From: Candidatus Uhrbacteria bacterium
GTDB taxonomy: Bacteria > Patescibacteriota > Patescibacteriia > UBA9934
Assembly (NCBI GenBank): GCA_018673485.1
Contig: JABHCP010000005.1
Location: 102-64,101, forward strand
Direction: 5' to 3'
Length of the DNA stretch: 64,000 bases
The notes under the pieces were generated by a model. It saw only the letters and a list, made by a program, of their open reading frames with translations, was not told the origin of the DNA and ran no database searches. This document shows, piece after piece, positions 1 to 38,600 of the stretch. Every line of letters starts with the position of its first letter. The stretch's first letter is position 1. A program made the translations under genes and the position numbers.

Positions 1-2522
1 AAGGTGCGCGTGAGCATAACTTAAAGAATGTTGATCTTGAATTACCCAGAAACAAACTAGTTTGTTTCACCGGATTGTCTGGGTCGGGTAAGTCATCACT
101 TGCCTTTGATACTATTTTTGCTGAAGGACAGCGAAGATATATTGAATCGCTCTCAGCGTACGCTCGTCAGTTCTTGGGGCAGATGCAAAAACCAGATGTT
201 GATGAGATCGAGGGGTTGTCACCTGCAATATCTATCGATCAAAAAGCGCATTCGCGTAATCCGCGATCAACTGTTGCAACGGTGACTGAGATTTACGATT
301 ATCTTCGTGTGCTTTTTGCACGAATCGGTGTTGCTCGTTGTCCAAAGTGTGAGCAATCAATTTCAAAGTTGAGCATTGATGAGATCACGGACCATGTTTT
401 GCACACCATCGGCAACCCCCTCCAGCTCCCCCTTGGGAAGGGGGAGGGACGAAATGGAAAGATGTTGACAGTGATGGCGCCTGTTGTCCGCGGTCGAAAG
501 GGTGAGTATTATCAGCTTTTGTATGATTTTTATAATGCTGGATTTGCAAAGGTGCGCATCAATGGGCAGATGCATAAGCTTAGCGACAAGATAAAGCTTT
601 CTCGGTATAAAAAGCATGAGATTGAAATAGTTATTGATTCAATTCCTGCGACTACTCTAATTAATCCCAATAAAGATCAGCGTCAACGACTTACTGAGGC
701 GCTTGAGATTGCAGTTGATCGAAGCGAAGGGTTGGTGTGCATCCAACATCCCACTAAGAAGGAACAGTTGTATTCCACAGAGTTTAGCTGTGCTGAGTGT
801 GGATTTTCATTTCCTGAAATTGAACCACGATTGTTTTCATTTAACAGCCCGTACGGTGCGTGTCAGTCCTGTGATGGACTTGGGACTATCGAGCTGTTCT
901 CAGAGGATGAGTGTGAGGTTTGTGAAGGAAAGCGATTACGCACTGAGGCGCTTAATGTATTTGTGAATGGAAAAAATATTGCAGAGTTTGTAGGCATGTC
1001 AGTTAAGCAGGCGACAGAGTTTGTTCTCGACATTGAGTTGTCTGATCGGCAAAAAGAGATTGCGAGCACGGTATTAAAAGAGATCGAGAATCGTCTAGCG
1101 TTCATGCTTGATGTTGGGTTGCATTATCTGACTCTCAACCGTCGCGCGGGAACGTTGTCAGGTGGAGAGGCGCAACGTATTCGACTGGCTTCACAAATTG
1201 GATCACGACTCGTGGGCGCTTTGTATGTTTTGGATGAGCCAACTATTGGCCTGCACCAACGAGATAATGATCAACTTATCGCAACGCTCAAAAACTTAAG
1301 AGATTTGGGAAATACAGTTATTGTGGTAGAGCACGATGAAGATACAATTCGTAATTCTGATGTGATGGTGGAAATCGGTCCAGGTGCTGGAGTGCACGGT
1401 GGTGAGATCGTTGCCGTTGGTGAAGTTCCAGAGATTTTTAATGATAAGAAGTCAACAACTGCTGCATATCTTAGAGGGGATAGAAAAATAGAGATTCCAA
1501 AAGAGCGTCGTAAGGTTGGCAGAGATCGGTTAAAAATCGTTGGTGCCAAGGCCAACAATCTAAAGAATTTAAATGTTGAGATCCCGCTGCGTCGACTGGT
1601 GTGTGTGACTGGAGTGTCAGGTTCGGGTAAGTCATCGCTCATGCATGAGGTGATGTACAAGTCGATTGCCAAGAAGTTATATAAGAGCAAGGCAACCCCA
1701 GGAGAGCACAAAGCCGTGATGGGTGTGGAATATATCGATAAGTTGATTCTAATCGATCAGTCGGCCATTGGGCGCACCTCACGGTCCAATCCAGCTACTT
1801 ATACTGGTGCATGGGGGCCAATTCGTGAGTTATATACGGCAACAGAGGAGGCTCGATTTCGTGGTTATAAACCAGGACGTTTTAGCTTTAATGTAAAAGG
1901 TGCGCGTGGCGGTCGATGTTCGAACTGCGAGGGACTTGGTGAGATCGGAATCGAGATGCACTTTTTACCAACTGTGTATGTGCAGTGTGACGTGTGCAAG
2001 GGAAAGCGATTTAATCGCGAGACACTTGAGGTGAAATGGAATGATAAAGATATTTATCAGGTTCTTGATATGACAATAGAAGATGGTCTTGAGTTCTTTA
2101 AAGATATTCCAACAGTTTTTGAAAAGTTTAAGATGTTAAATGAGGTTGGTCTTGGATATTTGAAGATCGGGCAGTCATCCAACACACTTTCCGGTGGCGA
2201 AGCGCAACGTGTTAAGTTAGCATCAGAACTTGCTAAGCGTCAGACTGGAAGAACGATGTATTTGCTTGATGAACCAACAACAGGTTTGCATTTTGAAGAC
2301 GTTAAGCAGTTATTGGAGGTGCTGCATAGATTAGTGGCACGAGGAAACACAGTTTGTGTGATCGAGCATAACCTTGATGTAATTAAAACTGCAGATTGGG
2401 TGATTGACCTGGGTCCCGAGGGTGGAGATGAAGGCGGTACGATAGTAGCCGAGGGAACTCCAGAGGACATTGCTCGCAAGACAGCAAGTTACACCGGTAA
2501 GTATCTTAGAAAAGTACTATGA
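1..2522 (+). CDS. uvrA: excinuclease ABC subunit A (UvrA), 5' end cut by window edge
   Basis: Reading from nt 3 gives GAREHNLKNVDLELPRNKLVCFTGLSGSGKSSLAFDTIFAEGQRRY..., i.e. the N-terminal region extends upstream of the ORF-track start at 75. Two ABC ATPase modules with LSGGE signature motifs and CxxC zinc-finger pairs. A 13-codon in-frame insertion sits at 421-459. Confidence 0.95.
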   Translation, partial: GAREHNLKNVDLELPRNKLVCFTGLSGSGKSSLAFDTIFAEGQRRYIESLSAYARQFLGQMQKPDVDEIEGLSPAISIDQKAHSRNPRSTVATVTEIYDYLRVLFARIGVARCPKCEQSISKLSIDEITDHVLHTIGNPLQLPLGKGEGRNGKMLTVMAPVVRGRKGEYYQLLYDFYNAGFAKVRINGQMHKLSDKIKLSRYKKHEIEIVIDSIPATTLINPNKDQRQRLTEALEIAVDRSEGLVCIQHPTKKEQLYSTEFSCAECGFSFPEIEPRLFSFNSPYGACQSCDGLGTIELFSEDECEVCEGKRLRTEALNVFVNGKNIAEFVGMSVKQATEFVLDIELSDRQKEIASTVLKEIENRLAFMLDVGLHYLTLNRRAGTLSGGEAQRIRLASQIGSRLVGALYVLDEPTIGLHQRDNDQLIATLKNLRDLGNTVIVVEHDEDTIRNSDVMVEIGPGAGVHGGEIVAVGEVPEIFNDKKSTTAAYLRGDRKIEIPKERRKVGRDRLKIVGAKANNLKNLNVEIPLRRLVCVTGVSGSGKSSLMHEVMYKSIAKKLYKSKATPGEHKAVMGVEYIDKLILIDQSAIGRTSRSNPATYTGAWGPIRELYTATEEARFRGYKPGRFSFNVKGARGGRCSNCEGLGEIGIEMHFLPTVYVQCDVCKGKRFNRETLEVKWNDKDIYQVLDMTIEDGLEFFKDIPTVFEKFKMLNEVGLGYLKIGQSSNTLSGGEAQRVKLASELAKRQTGRTMYLLDEPTTGLHFEDVKQLLEVLHRLVARGNTVCVIEHNLDVIKTADWVIDLGPEGGDEGGTIVAEGTPEDIARKTASYTGKYLRKVL
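421..458. repeat. palindromic repeat copy A (ggcaaccccctccagctcccccttgggaagggggaggg), in-frame inside uvrA
   Basis: Exact sequence is shared with copies at 2558-2595 and 34507-34544. It holds the inverted repeat CTCCCCCTT/AAGGGGGAG and encodes IGNPLQLPLGKGEG, aligned where E. coli UvrA has only a few residues (QPE). Confidence 0.8.
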
Positions 2523-3874
2523 TTCCAGAGCGAGTCAAAATACAGAGACACGCGATCGGCAACCCCCTCCAGCTCCCCCTTGGGAAGGGGGAGGGCTTAG
2601 GGCTTCCTGATGCGTCTGGGGTGTACTTGTATTTTGATGAGTACGATCAAATTTTGTATATCGGAAAGGCGACATCGTTAAAAAAACGTGTTGGCTCATA
2701 TTTTAACAAGGCGCATAACAGTCGAATTGCAGAATTGGTTTCAAAGATTGCGCGCATTGATTATATTCAGACTTCAACAGTTATCGAGGCTCTAGTTCTC
2801 GAAGCAAATCAAATCAAGGAGCATAAGCCGCCTTACAATATCATGCTAAAAGATGGTAAGAGCTTTTTGTATTTAGTAATTACCAATGAAGATTTCCCAA
2901 AGCCAATTTTACTGCGTGGACATGAGCTTGAGCGGGAGGGGGTCAGACCATTTCAAAAAGAGTTATCAATTAAGGCGAAGAAGAAGTATATGGCGGTATA
3001 TGGCCCGTATACCAGCGGTGTTTCTCTAAAGCGTGCATTAGATCTTATTAGAAAGGTCATTCCATGGAGTACATGCGAGCCACCAGAAATATCTGGTAAG
3101 CAAAGACCGTGTTTTGATGCGCATATTAAGCGATGTCCGGGAGTTTGCACTGGAAAGATTGATAAGCGAACGTATCGAAAGTACATGAAGCAGCTGATAA
3201 CATTTTTTGAAGGCGGACGAGCGCGACTTTTAGCTCAGCTTAAGCGCGAGATGAAGAAATACGCAAAAGAAGAAAGATTTGAGATGGCTGAGATAGCTCG
3301 ACGGAAAGTTTTTGCGCTTGAACACATTCAAGATATCGCGCTTATCACAAAAGAGGATTTTGAATTGCCGTACTCAGCACCGCAAGAGTTTATGTTTGAT
3401 CTTGATGGTAGGATTGAAGCATATGACATTAGTAATATCTCTGGAACCTCGTCAGTCGGATCGATGGTTGTGTTTGAAGATGGTCAACCGGTCAAGAGTA
3501 AATATCGAAAGTTTAAAATCAAGACAGTCGACGGCCCGAACGATGTTGCGATGATGGAAGAAGTCATTCGACGACGATTAAATCGTGCAAAGAGCGCACC
3601 TAAGGCTTGGGAGTTGCCGCAAGTAATGATCATTGATGGCGGGAAGCCACAGGTCAATCGAGTAAAATTAATTTTGAAGGAAATGAACATCGACATTCCC
3701 GTGATCGGAATCGCAAAAGGATTTGATCGCAAACAAGACCGGCTCGTGTTCGATCGAACTAATATAGAATTATCCAGAGTCGCTGCAGCCGGCAAAGAAC
3801 TTTTTCAAAAAGCCCGCGACGAAGCCCACCGTTTTGCTGTTGCCTATCACCGCAAGCTACGGTCAAAGCGCTAA
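2519..3874 (+). CDS. uvrC: excinuclease ABC subunit C (UvrC), short form
   Basis: GIY-YIG N-terminal domain (GVYLYFDEYDQILYIGKATSLKKRVGSYF) and a C-terminal RNase H-like endonuclease domain. The start overlaps the uvrA stop (ATGA). The same 38-nt repeat is inserted in-frame near the N-terminus. Confidence 0.9.
   Translation: MIPERVKIQRHAIGNPLQLPLGKGEGLGLPDASGVYLYFDEYDQILYIGKATSLKKRVGSYFNKAHNSRIAELVSKIARIDYIQTSTVIEALVLEANQIKEHKPPYNIMLKDGKSFLYLVITNEDFPKPILLRGHELEREGVRPFQKELSIKAKKKYMAVYGPYTSGVSLKRALDLIRKVIPWSTCEPPEISGKQRPCFDAHIKRCPGVCTGKIDKRTYRKYMKQLITFFEGGRARLLAQLKREMKKYAKEERFEMAEIARRKVFALEHIQDIALITKEDFELPYSAPQEFMFDLDGRIEAYDISNISGTSSVGSMVVFEDGQPVKSKYRKFKIKTVDGPNDVAMMEEVIRRRLNRAKSAPKAWELPQVMIIDGGKPQVNRVKLILKEMNIDIPVIGIAKGFDRKQDRLVFDRTNIELSRVAAAGKELFQKARDEAHRFAVAYHRKLRSKR
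2558..2595. repeat. palindromic repeat copy B, in-frame inside the uvrC N-terminus
   Basis: Identical 38 nt to copy A; translated as IGNPLQLPLGKGEG. Confidence 0.8.
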
Positions 3875-3884
3875 AAACAGAAAC

Positions 3885-3916
3885 CCCCACGCAAGCGCAG
3901 AGGCTTCGGTGGGGGT
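3885..3916. terminator. GC hairpin cccccac...gtggggg between uvrC and the convergent high-GC gene
   Basis: Inverted repeat; T-rich tail on the minus strand. Confidence 0.45.
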
Positions 3917-3926
3917 GAGAAGTGGA

Positions 3927-4277
3927 CTAGGCGACAGGGCGGATCAGCCGCCGGTCGAGCAGCATCCTGATCGTGGCGCCTTTGCGCCAGTGCCAGAAAT
4001 GGAGTCCGATATGGGGAAATATGAGAGTGAAGCCCTCACACCCCTTTTTGACCTCGCGCTGCTCCCGCCAGTCGTACTGGCCGAAGGGGTGCATGATCAT
4101 TACGATCTCACCTTCTTTGGCTACTTCGTGTACAGCGCGGATGAGCGACTGCGCGAAGCTGCCGCCGAGGCCGTCATATTGACGGCCCAGGATTACATGA
4201 TCGATTCGCTCAGCCCACTGGTAGTGGACTTCGCTTTGCTGATTCAGCGTGTTGAGGAATTCCTGAGCGCAGGCCAT
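3927..4277 (-). CDS. hypothetical protein, high-GC islet
   Basis: ~58% GC ORF. Start placed at the internal Met (MACAQEF) because the minus-strand promoter at 4331-4359 lies downstream of the ORF-track start at 4340. AAGGAG Shine-Dalgarno 6 nt upstream of 4277. Confidence 0.45.
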   Translation of the reverse strand: MACAQEFLNTLNQQSEVHYQWAERIDHVILGRQYDGLGGSFAQSLIRAVHEVAKEGEIVMIMHPFGQYDWREQREVKKGCEGFTLIFPHIGLHFWHWRKGATIRMLLDRRLIRPVA

Positions 4278-4330
4278 TCCTGCTCCTTCCGGGGCGGATG
4301 CCCCTTGTGGGTTGGTAGGTTGAACAAGGA

Positions 4331-4359
4331 AATATAGCATAAAAAAGGGCTTTTGTCAA
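4331..4359 (-). promoter_or_regulatory. sigma70-type promoter TTGACA-17-TATATT with extended TGC
   Basis: Minus-strand reading ttgacaaaagcccttttttatgctatatt. Confidence 0.55.
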
Positions 4360-4369
4360 CCCATAGCCC

Positions 4370-4400
4370 TTGATTTGGGGCTAAAATTAGTGTTATAATC
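4370..4400 (+). promoter_or_regulatory. -10 TATAAT (4395-4400) 5 nt before the start codon; possible leaderless mRNA
   Basis: tgttataatcaggacATG with no Shine-Dalgarno; the -35 is weak (ttgatt at 19-nt spacing). Confidence 0.35.
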
Positions 4401-4405
4401 AGGAC

Positions 4406-6220
4406 ATGAAAAAATCTGTGTTCAAAACTATCGCTAGTGTTGCCGCAGTTTTTATTTTTATAGAAGCCATGTTTGCGATTGGGTGGGTTTTGGGAGGAGA
4501 TTTTCAGGTGGTCGATATTACCGTGCCCGTTTTTGGACAGGAAGATATACCGGTTGTTGCATTCACTGTAAACGACCAACCTCAGTCATTGTACGACTGG
4601 GCATATGATCAGGCTAAGGACGTCGAGCATGTTGATGCGAAGTCAGCGATCGTGGCTCACCACCTTGTTGTGGCGGACGAGATCGCAAAAGTTTTTGAGA
4701 CACTTTCAGACGATAGTGTCGATACAGTAATTATTATGAGCCCGAATCATTTTGATCTTGGAGCAACTACTATTCAAACAACCATGGGAAGTTGGGATAC
4801 ATACTATGGCGAGGTTGAGGCTGATCAAGATCTGATTGAGGATTTGGCGGGTGATATTGAGGTGCTGCGAATTGAAGACGAGACTTTCGAGTATGAACAT
4901 GGAATCAGTGGACTCTTACCGTTTGTGGCACGATCATTTCCTGATGCTAAGATTGTTCCACTCGTGATTCATGAGTCACTCAGCGATGAAGATCGAGATA
5001 CACTCGCTGAATCAATCAATGAGCATGCTAAGAACGCAGTTATTTTTGCCAGCATCGACATGTCTCATAATTTACCGGAGCATACTCAAAATTTTCATGA
5101 TGAGATCACTCTACGAGCGTTGGAGATAGGGGATGCTCAAGATATTGAGTTAGAGATCGATGCGAATGTTGTGTTAAATACGCTATTGGCGATAAACAAC
5201 GATCAGGGAAGCCAAGAGTGGCACCTAACACATCATGACAGTTCGCTGGGTATGGAGCTCACTGATAATTACACCGAAAACACAAGCCACATCCTTGGAT
5301 ACTTCACAGATGGTGAATCGTATGATGATATTTTTGCCACACTTCACATTGTGGGGGACATAATGCTCGACCGTGGGGTACGATCATTACTCGAGTCTGA
5401 AGGCCAGGACTATCCATGGTTGAACATGGGGCGATTTTTGTCAGGGGCTCATACTGTTATCGGAAATCTCGAAGGGACAGTGAACGAACTGGCTAGTACA
5501 TATACAGTTTATCCACCATTTAGATTTGTTTTTTCACCTGATTCGATCGAAGTCATGAATGAATATATCGATGTCGTCAGTTTGGCCAATAATCATGCAA
5601 GTGACGTGGGATCGGCTGGTTTGCAGGAGACGAAAGACCGTCTCGACGAGATGGAGATCCCTTGGTTTGGGTCATACGCAACGCCTGTGCCGCGATATGA
5701 CGAGACCCTCAACGGAATCGACCTAACATATATCGGCTATCATCAGTTTCAACCAGATTCGATCGAACTAGTAGCACAGATTGAAGCAGCGGATGATGAA
5801 GGTCGATTTGTAACCGTGTTTCCGCATTGGGGGAGTGAGTATGTTGTAGCTCCAAGCTCATCACAGCGTGAGTTGGCTCAGTTGATGGTTGATGCCGGCG
5901 CAGATTTGATCATTGGAGGACATCCACATGTGGCGCAGGGGATAGAGATTATCGATGATGTGCCTGTGGTTTACTCGTTGGGTAACTTTATCTTCGATCA
6001 AATAGATCCAGCGACATATCCAGCGCTCACCGCAGGTTTGATAATCGATGATAGCGAAATCGAGATTTACCTCATGCCAGTTTGGACGCAAGGAAGCCAG
6101 CCAACGCCGATGAGCGATCAGGAAGCACTGGATTTGTTCTCAGACCTAGCAGAAGTTTCATCAGATGAGCTCGTGACACAAATAAAAAACGGTGTTATAA
6201 CAACATCATATACAAAATAA
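4406..6220 (+). CDS. membrane-anchored fusion: Memo-like (AmmeMemoRadiSam-B) domain plus CapA-type metallophosphatase domain
   Basis: N-terminal TM helix. Memo motifs HH, SPNHF, EHGISGLLPF, IDMSH. CapA/PGA motifs GNLE, SLANNH, GSEY, LIIGGHPHVAQG, YSLGNFIFDQ. Confidence 0.8.
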   Translation: MKKSVFKTIASVAAVFIFIEAMFAIGWVLGGDFQVVDITVPVFGQEDIPVVAFTVNDQPQSLYDWAYDQAKDVEHVDAKSAIVAHHLVVADEIAKVFETLSDDSVDTVIIMSPNHFDLGATTIQTTMGSWDTYYGEVEADQDLIEDLAGDIEVLRIEDETFEYEHGISGLLPFVARSFPDAKIVPLVIHESLSDEDRDTLAESINEHAKNAVIFASIDMSHNLPEHTQNFHDEITLRALEIGDAQDIELEIDANVVLNTLLAINNDQGSQEWHLTHHDSSLGMELTDNYTENTSHILGYFTDGESYDDIFATLHIVGDIMLDRGVRSLLESEGQDYPWLNMGRFLSGAHTVIGNLEGTVNELASTYTVYPPFRFVFSPDSIEVMNEYIDVVSLANNHASDVGSAGLQETKDRLDEMEIPWFGSYATPVPRYDETLNGIDLTYIGYHQFQPDSIELVAQIEAADDEGRFVTVFPHWGSEYVVAPSSSQRELAQLMVDAGADLIIGGHPHVAQGIEIIDDVPVVYSLGNFIFDQIDPATYPALTAGLIIDDSEIEIYLMPVWTQGSQPTPMSDQEALDLFSDLAEVSSDELVTQIKNGVITTSYTK

Positions 6221-17988: not shown

Positions 17989-19483
<1,495 letters not shown>

Positions 19484-19637: not shown

Positions 19638-19666
19638 ATTGTACTAAACCCCTGAAAACCTGTCAA
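19638..19666 (-). promoter_or_regulatory. 16S rRNA promoter TTGACA-17-TACAAT
   Basis: Minus-strand reading ttgacaggttttcaggggtttagtacaat, ~150 nt upstream of the mature 16S 5' end. Confidence 0.6.
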
Positions 19667-30964: not shown

Positions 30965-30979
30965 GGTTAGTGTTAGCCA

Positions 30980-31055
30980 GGGGGCACTTCGTCCCCCTGT
31001 AACCCCCAGACATACTTTCTTTGTTGGCTCAAAGAAAGTATGCAAAGAAAGAGCC
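30980..31055. repeat. ~75-nt structured repeat, copy 1 (GGGGG hairpin plus perfect 12-bp stem catactttcttt/aaagaaagtatg)
   Basis: 52 nt identical to 37236-37287; the upstream hairpin differs by compensatory loop changes. Confidence 0.7.
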
Positions 31056-31248
31056 TTTTTCAGAGTAGTCCCACGGCCATGGGGAATGCTACGGCCTGCA
31101 GTCAATGTTTTTGGGTAACCATGAATGAACTGATTGCCAGTTCGGTCGGCAGGCTCCCTCTCAGACGGAGTTGTCTAACAATGAGTGAACGGGGGCTGGC
31201 TACTGGAACATTAACGGGGGACTGAGGTGAGAGATGTCGATACAAAAA

Positions 31249-36110: not shown

Positions 36111-36722
36111 ATGAATATAGAAAATATTGTTCCAGAAATTCAGTCCCAGGTGCTTATTCCGACTGTTGTCGAGAAGACGCATCATGGTGAGCGGTCTTAT
36201 GATATTTACTCACGGCTTCTAAAGGATCGGATTATCTTTTTAGGAAGTGCAATTGATGACACCGTAGCAAACGCTGTCATTGCTCAATTGTTATTTCTTG
36301 AAAGCCAGGATCAAGAGCGTGATATTAAACTTTACATTAATTCCCCAGGCGGATCAGTCACTGCAGGACTAGCGATTTATGACACCATGCAATACATCAA
36401 GCCATCAGTTTCAACGATTTGTGTTGGAATGGCGGCAAGTATGGGGGCGGTGCTTTTGACTGCTGGAGAAAAAGGGAAGCGATTCGTTCTACCAAATTCC
36501 GAAGTGATGATTCATCAAGTTTTGGGAGGCGTGCAAGGGCAGGCAACTGATATTAAGATTCACGCCGAGCGTATTTTGGCAGTAAAGGATTCACTCAATA
36601 AGATTATTTCAAAACATTCCGGTCAACCCATAAAGAAAGTATCTGATGATACAGAGCGCGATAAGTTCCTGACAGCAAAAGACGCACTCGCTTACGGATT
36701 GATCGATAAGATAATCAAATAA
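36111..36722 (+). CDS. clpP: ATP-dependent Clp protease proteolytic subunit
   Basis: [19 protein letters not shown]; catalytic GGSVTAG...MIHQ...D. Confidence 0.95.
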
Positions 36723-36728
36723 TTAAAA

Positions 36729-36750
36729 GCGACCCTTTGCGGGTCGTTTT
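36729..36750. terminator. clpP terminator gcgaccctttgcgggtcgtttt
   Basis: Hairpin plus T-run; A-run on the opposite side, so usable bidirectionally. Confidence 0.7.
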
Positions 36751-36751
36751 A

Positions 36752-36952
36752 GGTTTCAGAAAAGCAGAACCACCTCCGGAGAGGTGGTTGAGGCGAAAGA
36801 CTTGCAAAGTTCGGTTTGAAGCGCTACCGATACCATCGCTGGGGAATTCCCTTTAGGCTAGTGTCTTTGAACGAGCCTGCCTCTGGCACTTTTGAGGCGG
36901 TAGGCAGTCCAGGTCCTGCTCGGTGCATCAGAACATCCTGGGTAGTTCTGAA
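36752..36952 (-). ncRNA. candidate ~200-nt sRNA (promoter to terminator, no ORF)
   Basis: Strong minus-strand promoter at 36960-36988, the clpP hairpin as terminator, and 5'/3' end complementarity (ttcagaa/ttctgaa). Family unassigned (possibly 6S-like). Confidence 0.35.
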
Positions 36953-36959
36953 TAGTGAA

Positions 36960-36988
36960 ATAATAGCATGAAAAAGCCCTTTTGTCAA
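36960..36988 (-). promoter_or_regulatory. promoter TTGACA-17-TATTAT (extended TGC)
   Basis: Minus-strand reading ttgacaaaagggctttttcatgctattatt. Confidence 0.55.
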
Positions 36989-37045
36989 GGGATTTAGCCA
37001 ATTTTTGCGCTATTTTTAGGTAAATTTGATGGGTGGGCTAAGGGG

Positions 37046-37074
37046 TTGACAGGGGCTTGAATGCGTGGTACTAT
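37046..37074 (+). promoter_or_regulatory. promoter TTGACA-17-TACTAT, divergent from the 36960 promoter
   Basis: ttgacaggggcttgaatgcgtggtactat. Confidence 0.55.
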
Positions 37075-37080
37075 GCTTCG

Positions 37081-37210
37081 TCGTGATGACATCCCTTTTG
37101 ACCTGCAGCCACGACAAGCATGGGGGTATATGATCTGTATGATTTCGGCTCCGGCTGATCCCTTACAGAATATATATCTTCTTGGCTGCAGTTTTGAAGG
37201 GATTTTTTTA
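37081..37210 (+). ncRNA. candidate ~130-nt sRNA forming a long stem-loop ending in a T-run
   Basis: 5' arm tcccttttgacctgcagcc pairs with ggctgcagttttgaaggga, followed by ttttttt. The overlapping ORF 37061-37360 has no Shine-Dalgarno. Confidence 0.35.
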
Positions 37211-37213
37211 ATT

Positions 37214-37287
37214 GGGGGTATTTCATCCCCCAAACCCCCAGACATACTTTCTTTGTTGGCTCAAAGAAAGTATGCAAAGAAAGAGCC
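37214..37287. repeat. ~75-nt structured repeat, copy 2
   Basis: See copy 1 at 30980-31055. Confidence 0.7.
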
Positions 37288-37557
37288 CTTTCTTACGTGT
37301 CCCGCGCCTTTATTAAAATCCAAGTGGCTGCCGCCAATTTTTTATTTAAGGTATTCCTAGGGAGGGCTGATCGATAAGCACCAGCCGTAGGGTTGGCGTC
37401 GGATCACAAGGACCAACGCCGTCGGGTAACGTGGTGCAACCGCAAAGCATTAGAGTTTAGCGGGGAAAAATTGGCTTGGGACTCAGTTAAGAATGGCGAG
37501 CTTGTGGCGGCTCCCAGTTTAGATAAATGATGAATACGAGTCGAGATTGTAATTTGA

Positions 37558-37580
37558 AAGCACCTCGTTTTGAGGTGCTT
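37558..37580 (-). terminator. terminator aagcacctcgttttgaggtgctt
   Basis: Downstream of the CNNM gene. Confidence 0.6.
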
Positions 37581-37586
37581 ATGGGT

Positions 37587-38600
37587 TTATTTCTTTTTTG
37601 TTGTTTTCTTCTTTTGAGCTTTTCTTTTTGCTTTGGCTCTTAGGTCTGCTACTTTGTCGAATTCGTCTATAATTTCTGTTCCGATGATTTCTTCCAAGAT
37701 GTCTTCTACCGAGATAACGCCTTCGAAGCCTCCAAACTCGTCGCGTACAATGAATAGGTGTTTGTGCTTTTTGATGAAGGTATTAAGTACATCGTCAAGT
37801 GGTGTGTCGGTTGAAACCTCCACTGCTGGTTTTTTGATGAACTTTTCTATTGATTTTCCTTTGATCTCTTTTCCTAGTAGGTCGTGTAGGTGAAGTATGC
37901 CGACTATGTTATCTTGAGCATCTTTGTAAACTGGGAAGCGAGAGTGACCAGACTCGCGAAGCTCTTTGATGAGCTTGATTGTTAGCTTTCCTTGAGCATC
38001 CAATATCTTAACAACTGTATTGGGTGTCATTACGTCCGATGCTGTTTTGTCAGAGAACGTCAGTGCTCCTCGCGTGATCCTTTCCTCATCAGTGTCAATA
38101 TCGCTTCGCGCTGAGCTGCCGTGCTCTTCGATGACTTTTAGTAGTTCTCCACGTGAGTAGACACTTGGCATTTCGTCACCTAGAGTTTTGTCTAGTATCC
38201 AAGCGATCGGGTAGGTGAGTGGTAGAAGTACGATGATTAATATCTTAACAATCCATGCAGTCTTTGCACCAAAAGCCATTGCGTATCGTGAGATAACAGC
38301 TTGTGGCACGATTTCACCGAACACAAAGATCAGTGCTGTTGATACGATTCCAGCTACTAGTCCGGCCGCTATCGTTCCTAAGAAAATCGCAAGCGCTGCG
38401 TTTACTGCAACGTTTCCAAGAAGCAGTGTGGTGAGCAATAGGTTCCCACGCTTTCGGATTGGATAAATCTTTTTTGCATATTTATCCTTTAGATCCATTT
38501 TTCGTTTTAACTCATGTGCGTCGAGGCCCATGAGTCCAAGTGTGAGTCCGGAAAACAATGCCGAACAGCAAAGAAGTAGGAAAGTAATAACGTATGTCAT
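37587..38600 (-). CDS. CNNM/CorC-family (DUF21 + CBS pair) divalent-cation transporter
   Basis: DUF21 TM region, tandem CBS domains, basic C-terminal tail. Confidence 0.8.
   Translation of the reverse strand: MTYVITFLLLCCSALFSGLTLGLMGLDAHELKRKMDLKDKYAKKIYPIRKRGNLLLTTLLLGNVAVNAALAIFLGTIAAGLVAGIVSTALIFVFGEIVPQAVISRYAMAFGAKTAWIVKILIIVLLPLTYPIAWILDKTLGDEMPSVYSRGELLKVIEEHGSSARSDIDTDEERITRGALTFSDKTASDVMTPNTVVKILDAQGKLTIKLIKELRESGHSRFPVYKDAQDNIVGILHLHDLLGKEIKGKSIEKFIKKPAVEVSTDTPLDDVLNTFIKKHKHLFIVRDEFGGFEGVISVEDILEEIIGTEIIDEFDKVADLRAKAKRKAQKKKTTKKK

Follow-up and report, generated by a model that had tools for sequence, protein, structure and literature searches.

A 64-kb stretch of the genome of a Candidatus Uhrbacteria bacterium (GenBank assembly GCA_018673485.1, contig JABHCP010000005.1, positions 102–64,101) was analyzed. 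It is called the window here, and coordinates refer to it unless a locus is named. It contains an 864-bp spacer between clpP (36111-36722, plus strand) and a CNNM/CBS gene (37587-38600, minus strand), both labeled by Pfam. The gene order around the spacer is SMC, VKOR, DHH phosphoesterase, clpP, spacer, CNNM, VanW-like, and HSP20. An earlier sequence-only reading, made without database searches, had described this intergenic region at close to its measured length (about 860 bp) and had placed two divergent transcripts in it. Our best joint explanation, with a probability of roughly 0.55, is that the spacer holds two unrelated transcription units with a common divergent promoter region. Both look like independent, terminated transcripts. 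On the plus strand, conservation and covariation in 17 loci argue for a bona fide gene for a non-coding structured RNA, independently transcribed and specific to an Uhrbacteria-like lineage. On the minus strand, the simplest reading of the compared sequences is a variable slot rather than a conserved small RNA (sRNA).

Two back-to-back promoters of near-consensus quality had been proposed, and both are found where they had been placed. They are of the sigma-70 type, and each has a TG extension. The minus-unit promoter (36988..36960, minus strand) consists of TTGACA at 36988-36983, a 17-bp spacer, and TATTAT at 36965-36960, with 11/12 consensus matches; transcription is predicted to start near A36953. 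The plus-RNA promoter (37046..37074, plus strand) consists of TTGACA at 37046-37051, a 17-bp spacer ending in TGG, and TACTAT at 37069-37074, with 10/12 matches and a predicted start near G37080. Promoter-like sites with at least 10/12 matches number 22 in the whole window, compared to 10.6 ± 3.4 in shuffled sequences. A perfect TTGACA together with the TG extension (at least 10/12) occurs at only three sites in the window, two of which are the divergent pair. The third, at 4330-4359 on the minus strand (TTGACA-17-TATATT, 11/12, TG extension), has a spacer (AAAGCCCUUUUUUAUGC) that nearly matches that of the minus-unit promoter. It is also divergent and adjoins a TTATAAT box. The presumptive promoter of the 16S ribosomal RNA (rRNA) gene (17993-19483, minus strand; promoter at 19666) scores 11/12 on the same consensus scale. 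No match to 23S or 5S rRNA was found anywhere in the window, and the rRNA genes are therefore apparently unlinked.

Homologs were surveyed by a ClpP-anchored scan of a genome collection, which returned 80 loci. Searches were performed using nhmmer and then a covariance model, R1, built from eight sequences. Ten further loci were added through contigs encoding ClpP 83–95% identical to the ClpP of the window. Individual loci are denoted by L numbers.

Structure and conservation of the plus-strand RNA

The plus-strand transcript had been described as a single long stem-loop of about 130 nt ending in T7, and folding agrees. Positions 37080-37210 fold into one long hairpin of −54 kcal/mol with T7 after it (z = −7.0; 0/200 shuffles equal it). 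The fold, the homologs, and covariation together define a rod-shaped hairpin of ~130 nt at 37080-37209 on the plus strand. Its outermost helix, P1 (37091-37101/37193-37203), is variable in sequence, is followed by a U-run (37204-37209), and doubles as a predicted terminator stem here. Helix P2 (CUGCAGCCA, 37103-37111, pairing with UGGCUGCAG, 37183-37191) has 9 bp in every aligned member, and its middle pairs covary. An invariant 5′ bulge, CGACAAGCAU (37112-37121), faces a single U at 37182. Helix P3 (37122-37131/37172-37181) starts with an invariant G-C and G-U, followed by a near-invariant G-U. Two more short helices lie between P3 and the tip, which is a UCCG tetraloop (37150-37153) on an apical stem. 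The tip follows the pattern GGN-UNCG-NCU, and the tetraloop is UNCG in 13/14 aligned members and UUAG in L012. The closing stem (P1 and P2) measures ~21 bp and the part from P3 to P5 ~20 bp.

The internal loop is the most constant part of the molecule. None of the 17 members departs from its two blocks, CACGACAAGCAUGG and UUCUUG, and the loop is flanked by invariant pairs, including a tandem G-U. The span from CACGACAAGCAUGG to UUCUUG-N4-CAG is 80–84 nt in every locus. The plus RNA can be described by the motif pattern CACGACAAGCATGG-N40-70-TTCTTG-N4-CAG, which, with N4 before CAG, matches 20/20 loci carrying the RNA.

Conservation in related genomes had been suggested as a check, and homologs of the plus transcript were found in 17/17 distinct Uhrbacteria-like loci (ClpP 71–95% identical), with covariation. 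Each locus has exactly one copy, scoring 103–120 bits, and the position is constant, between clpP and the VanW/CNNM block. Among the 80 ClpP-anchored loci, only the seven Uhrbacteria-like ones (ClpP 71–81% identical) carry the RNA, and all ten added loci (ClpP 83–95% identical) carry it as well. It was not found by nhmmer or R1 near clpP of Kuenen-, Buchanan-, Pacei-, and Liptonbacteria, Peregrini-, Berkel-, and Saccharibacteria, or Firmicutes, nor within the available sequence of L014 (ClpP 77% identical, other gene context). In L012, L013, and L100, the RNA is on the strand opposite to clpP, which indicates an independent gene. Three G-U pairs are invariant and the reverse strand scores only 17–36 bits, so that the strand of the RNA is fixed.

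Covariation was assessed in two alignments. A1, a MAFFT alignment folded with RNAalifold and made without the covariance model, has 36 pairs, of which 24 show compensatory double changes. A2 is the model alignment of 14 sequences; pairing covers 92.3% of its cells, compared to 39–48% when partners are slid by 1–3 columns. Double changes occur at 23/36 pairs, and 0/500 shuffles reach any observed measure.

Predicted signals for transcription are also retained. A promoter of the form TTGAC(A/G/T), a 16–18-bp spacer (17 bp in 15/16), and TAnnnT, mostly with TGn, is found upstream of the RNA in 16/17 loci. Its distance to the model start is 2–14 nt in 11 loci, 30–43 nt in three, and 139–159 nt in three; the last are loci with an extra inserted hairpin. 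The predicted 3′ end is either a U-run after P1 or a separate downstream hairpin terminator. The inserts are 135–160 nt long and lie between the promoter and the core RNA, at 4441-4577 in L097, ~3830-3965 (minus strand) in L100, and ~4842-5000 (minus strand) in L013. Those of L097 and L100 each form a long hairpin with common ends, AGAUAUUG...CAAUAGAU. The L100 leader CACCCCUUU is duplicated on both sides of its insert, resembling a target-site duplication.

The plus RNA had also been described as lacking a credible open reading frame (ORF), and this held. It has no start codon and no Shine-Dalgarno sequence, and peptides of any frame are unconserved outside the invariant nucleotides. Substitutions in 13 pairwise comparisons are evenly spread over the three codon positions. 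A small-peptide gene was rejected on these grounds, as peptide lengths and sequences are unconserved and third-position bias is absent. Public gene calls place a 64–79-aa ORF across the RNA in several contigs (37061-37360, plus strand, in the window). These calls look wrong and are judged spurious.

At gathering score, the plus RNA of the window and of seven relatives matches none of the 4,227 families of Rfam 15. With the limit relaxed to E ≤ 10, searches of the window, L017, and L013 gave only microRNA- and small nucleolar RNA-like hairpin noise. Scans for 6S, signal recognition particle (SRP), and other known sRNAs, as the sequence-only reading had proposed, returned no family for either transcript at gathering score or E ≤ 10. 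The other weak Rfam matches are confined to a flanking repeat: an S4 leader (E = 0.14) and the type I toxin-antitoxin RNA fstAT (RF01797; 37187-37280). The latter was rejected, as its 19.6 bits fall far below the gathering score of 72 and it has no small hydrophobic ORF. No transfer or transfer-messenger RNA genes were detected using ARAGORN (36600-37700). A mobile-element origin was also rejected; nothing similar was found in phage and plasmid collections, and viral contigs do not match the motif pattern. No description of this RNA was found in the literature on non-coding RNAs of Candidate Phyla Radiation (CPR) bacteria, Patescibacteria, Parcubacteria, or Uhrbacteria. Judged from sequence, the plus RNA defines a new family, with covariation in its support. 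Like orphan structured RNA motifs from comparative genomics (Rfam type "Gene; sRNA"), it is defined by covariation, conserved loops, and its own putative promoter and terminator. Unlike them, it is in none of the 4,227 families and is restricted, as sampled, to Uhrbacteria-like Patescibacteria.

Possible roles of the plus-strand RNA

The plus RNA may be a protein-binding RNA of the housekeeping type, acting within a ribonucleoprotein (RNP) or as a decoy. We favor this role tentatively, at a little under even odds. The extended −10 promoter would yield an RNA of ~130 nt that folds into a rigid rod, with P1 as intrinsic terminator in the clade of the window. The invariant asymmetric loop would be a sequence-specific docking site for a protein, and the rod, kept by covariation, would set a fixed geometry. 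The helices and their lengths are kept by compensatory change, while the flanking intergenic DNA has lost all similarity. Proteins recognize 6S, SRP, and Y RNAs as three-dimensional objects, and base-pairing sRNAs usually conserve just the seed and the terminator. The loop-tip-loop distance, fixed to within 2 nt in all members, supports protein binding, and together with the compensated helices and the invariance of both loop strands it favors this role over others.

Several points weigh against this account of the plus unit. Its start and 3′ ends are predictions, and alignment A2, unlike A1, was fitted to the covariance model. The distribution survey covers clpP neighborhoods only. One frame is, oddly, open across the RNA in 16/17 homologs, with unconserved amino acids. 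The protein-binding mechanism itself is drawn from architecture; beyond conserved synteny, no gene was identified that co-occurs with the RNA, and an invariant unpaired stretch of 10 nt could serve just as well as a seed for base pairing.

The main rival is a trans-acting base-pairing sRNA, which we consider unlikely but a real contender. Its seed would be CGACAAGCAU(GG), with the loop sequence CGACAAGCAUGG taken as the candidate seed, and it would pair with CCAUGCUUGUCG-like sites in mRNAs, maybe over the start codon. The rest of the molecule would be a stabilizing scaffold and terminator. An sRNA of this kind would fit the strong promoter and intrinsic terminator, the predicted unpaired state of the most conserved element (10–14 nt), and the presence of AUG in the complement of the loop. 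However, only four complementary matches (≤3 mismatches) were found in the 64-kb window, where 5.5 are expected, and the best is antisense within a gene. Such sRNAs rarely keep all helices and helix lengths by compensation over comparable divergence, and the seed model does not require the opposite strand, UUCUUG, which is also invariant.

It is very unlikely that the plus RNA is a highly divergent miniature of a universal housekeeping RNA, which would be a decoy for RNA polymerase resembling 6S RNA or else an aberrant 4.5S/SRP RNA. In the 6S version, the internal loop would mimic an open promoter and serve as template for product RNA. Like 6S RNA (ssrS, RF00013), the plus RNA is rod-shaped and appears highly expressed; a stem closes the rod, a single conserved internal loop lies near its middle, and a stem-loop forms its far end. 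The lengths of its closing and terminal parts are 6S-like in proportion. Its gene has one copy and a predicted sigma-70 promoter to itself, strong and constitutive-looking, and all genomes of the lineage that were examined carry it. The absence of a 6S or SRP gene elsewhere in the window is a weak point in favor. Like bacterial small SRP RNA (4.5S, RF00169), it is a single hairpin of ~110–130 nt with paired ends. Its internal loop is conserved and asymmetric, long on the 5′ side and 1 nt on the 3′ side, and its conserved tip is capped by a tetraloop. However, the resemblance fails on every feature that could be tested, from the covariance model and the length to the symmetry of the bubble and the type of tetraloop. 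Three divergent members (window, L017, and L013) have no match to the 6S or SRP models (RF00013; RF00169/RF01854) at E ≤ 10. The plus RNA is ~130 nt, while 6S is 150–200 nt. In its loop, 10 nt face a single nucleotide, and 14 nt would face 6 nt at most should the invariant G-U-rich pairs melt, while both strands of the 6S bubble are unpaired (~10–15 nt each). Its tip is mostly UNCG rather than the GNRA of SRP domain IV with symmetric and asymmetric loops, the domain IV motif (GGAA...AGCA) is absent, and its loop lies ~28 nt from the tip, which the SRP loop adjoins.

Also improbable is an unrecognized RNP, essential in Uhrbacteria, for which the plus RNA would be the RNA subunit or a decoy; the RNA could, for example, functionally replace 6S or another universal housekeeping RNA. 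The 14-nt invariant loop would then recognize RNA polymerase or another protein of the core machinery. Ms1 of mycobacteria and other lineage-restricted 6S-like RNAs reportedly offer a precedent, in which a lineage without recognizable 6S has another abundant structured RNA binding RNA polymerase. Ms1 is ~300 nt with a different fold, and no relation to the plus RNA in sequence or structure is apparent.

CPR bacteria are uncultivated and have tiny genomes, and to our knowledge almost no non-coding RNAs beyond rRNA and transfer RNA have been described in them. The plus RNA has traits typical of RNAs with core jobs (a single gene, a strong promoter, a covariation-kept structure, and the 14-nt invariant loop), and throughout a class-level lineage its place is between the same two blocks of genes. 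Its covariance model and coordinates provide a concrete, cheaply testable handle. As a new family in an uncultivated lineage, the plus RNA is moderately interesting; the minus RNA is ordinary.

The minus-strand unit

A minus-strand transcript of ~190 nt is probably made, judging from its promoter and terminator signals. Its body (36790-36953, minus strand) is ~165 nt, species-specific, and includes a 34-codon ORF. The terminator (36757-36789, minus strand) consists of the hairpin AACCACCUCUCCGGAGGUGGUU (36789-36768) followed by CUGCUUUUCUG. The sequence-only reading had run a transcript of ~200 nt to the clpP terminator. The clpP terminator is not needed, as the unit has its own terminator-like hairpin, with CUGCUUUUCU after it, upstream of the clpP hairpin. 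The clpP hairpin (CGACCCUUUGCGGGUCG, 36746..36730, within 36726-36752) is predicted to be bidirectional, with A- and T-runs on either side, and can act as a back-stop terminator for read-through from the minus unit.

The complementary ends noted for this transcript are present, as 7 bp of pairing between AUUCAGAA and UUCUGAA. Folding is only marginally better than that of shuffles (z = −2.4; 4/200 do as well), and both the minimum-free-energy and centroid structures are multi-branched. Conservation was not found: nhmmer detected no DNA homolog of the body in any relative, including genomes with ClpP 92–95% identical, and no paralog occurs in the window apart from promoter similarity. Six-frame searches of 5.8 billion proteins gave no match at E ≤ 10, and Rfam at E ≤ 10 gave only microRNA- and small nucleolar RNA-like hairpin noise for this transcript. 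No 6S match was found at gathering score or E ≤ 10 across 36650-37650.

The slot was compared in the four closest relatives. The block from the promoters through the plus RNA (36957-37207; from 36977 in L099) is 85% identical in L093, 83% in L098, and 86% in L099. Going downstream, homology to the window is lost within a few bases of the minus −10 box. The minus promoter is kept in three of the four relatives (L093, L098, and L099), where it heads protein-coding genes, and the terminator module, at the clpP-proximal end, is kept in all four. This module is 57–62 nt in L093, L097, L098, and L099, with 92–95% identity among the first three and ~80% to L099. The window shares the terminator tail GGUUCUKCUUUUCUGAA with the module of the L093 cargo gene. 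The cargo proteins, encoded on the minus strand, measure 236 aa with a signal peptide (L093), 116 aa (L097), and ~155 and 163 aa (L098 and L099), the last two being homologs of each other. Pfam detected no domain in the four proteins.

The promoter and terminator would thus bracket a slot in which accessory genes are exchanged or lost between species, and in the window a short unconserved sequence would take the place of a cargo gene. Because the ends are fixed and the cargo of relatives is unrelated, the transcript of the window is probably real but functionless or very young. That it is such a species-specific RNA, and not a member of an sRNA family, is in our judgment somewhat better than an even bet. 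Like other variable accessory-gene slots, this one has a conserved promoter and terminator module around unrelated cargo in sister genomes. It differs in that neither recombination sites (attC-like or repeats) nor a gene for an integrase or for mobility was seen, and in that the window copy has no recognizable gene. The two transcripts had originally been treated alike, which the comparison does not bear out, as one appears to be a conserved RNA gene and the other a species-specific sequence that fills a variable slot. The minus unit cautions that a near-perfect promoter and a terminator do not make a functional sRNA, and it points to a small hot spot of accessory-gene exchange in which promoter and terminator stay fixed.

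The sequence-only reading had suggested a 6S-like or other sRNA for the minus transcript. No Rfam family or homolog supports this, and the slot is protein-coding in relatives. A functional, strain-specific regulatory sRNA is therefore doubtful. It would account for the 11/12 promoter with TG extension, the dedicated terminator, and the paired ends, but the cargo genes of relatives explain the promoter and terminator as well. The lack of conservation at any distance, the marginal fold, which is multi-branched rather than rod-like, and the absence of an Rfam match stand against it. The identification as 6S (RF00013) was rejected; the fold is not a rod with a central bubble, and the sequence is unconserved at ClpP identities of 71–95%.

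It is similarly doubtful that the transcript encodes a 34-aa micro-protein, MHRAGPGLPTASKVPEAGSFKDTSLKGIPQRWYR, as a tiny cargo gene. The ORF runs from ATG 36927 to a stop at 36823 with AGGA 7 nt upstream of the ATG, so that the earlier statement that neither transcript contains a credible ORF does not quite hold for the minus RNA. Relatives use GGAG-N5-8-ATG in the same slot, which is protein-coding in the nearest relatives (4/4). Against this, no homolog occurs in any frame among the 5.8 billion proteins, the peptide is not hydrophobic and has no recognizable feature, and gene callers predicted nothing there in called contigs covering the ORF. Short ORFs are under-represented in protein databases and AGGA-N7-ATG is present, and a micro-protein may thus exist, which counts against a functionless RNA.

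An alternative origin of the minus body, as a remnant of the L093 cargo, was unsupported. A tblastn search with the 209-aa plus-strand ORF opposite the 236-aa gene was empty, as were nhmmer and six-frame searches. In L093, this low-complexity 209-aa ORF is called at 3778-4407 (plus strand), opposite the plausible 236-aa secreted-protein gene at 3718-4428 (minus strand), and the public call looks wrong. The regulatory ends of the L093 slot are at 3640-3706 and 4428-4470, and the corresponding regions were compared in L097, L098, and L099. A C-rich 5′ leader motif (CAACCCCCAACCC) is common to the L093, L098, and L099 cargo genes, and all four cargo genes have the terminator module, although their coding sequences are unrelated.

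Flanking repeat and spacer modules

A dispersed structured repeat, rest1 (37213-37291, plus strand), directly follows the plus RNA and is part of neither transcript. It contains a GGGGG-N8-CCCCC hairpin (37213-37230) and a 13-bp perfect hairpin (37243-37274). Other copies are at 30978-31077 in the window, 1454-1569 (minus strand) in L010, and 3670-3754 in L097. The layout is the GGGGG-N8-CCCCC hairpin, ACCCCC, the 13-bp hairpin with invariant UUUCUUUG...CAAAGAAA, and then a second AAAGAAAG. Covariation between copies is seen in the stems: GGGGG/CCCCC versus GGAGG/CCUCC, and CAUAC/GUAUG versus CUCCA/UGGAG versus CCCGG/CCGGG. Duplication of the 3′ partners hints at alternative pairings. In the window, each of the two copies occupies a convergent intergenic region. 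The ends of four independent assemblies fall within rest1 (37254-37291), as expected for a multi-copy repeat.

Farther along the spacer, a ~95-nt module (37388-37482) is 74% identical to L098 3694-3788. In L098, this module directly follows clpP, and the spacer therefore appears to be built from shuffled modules.

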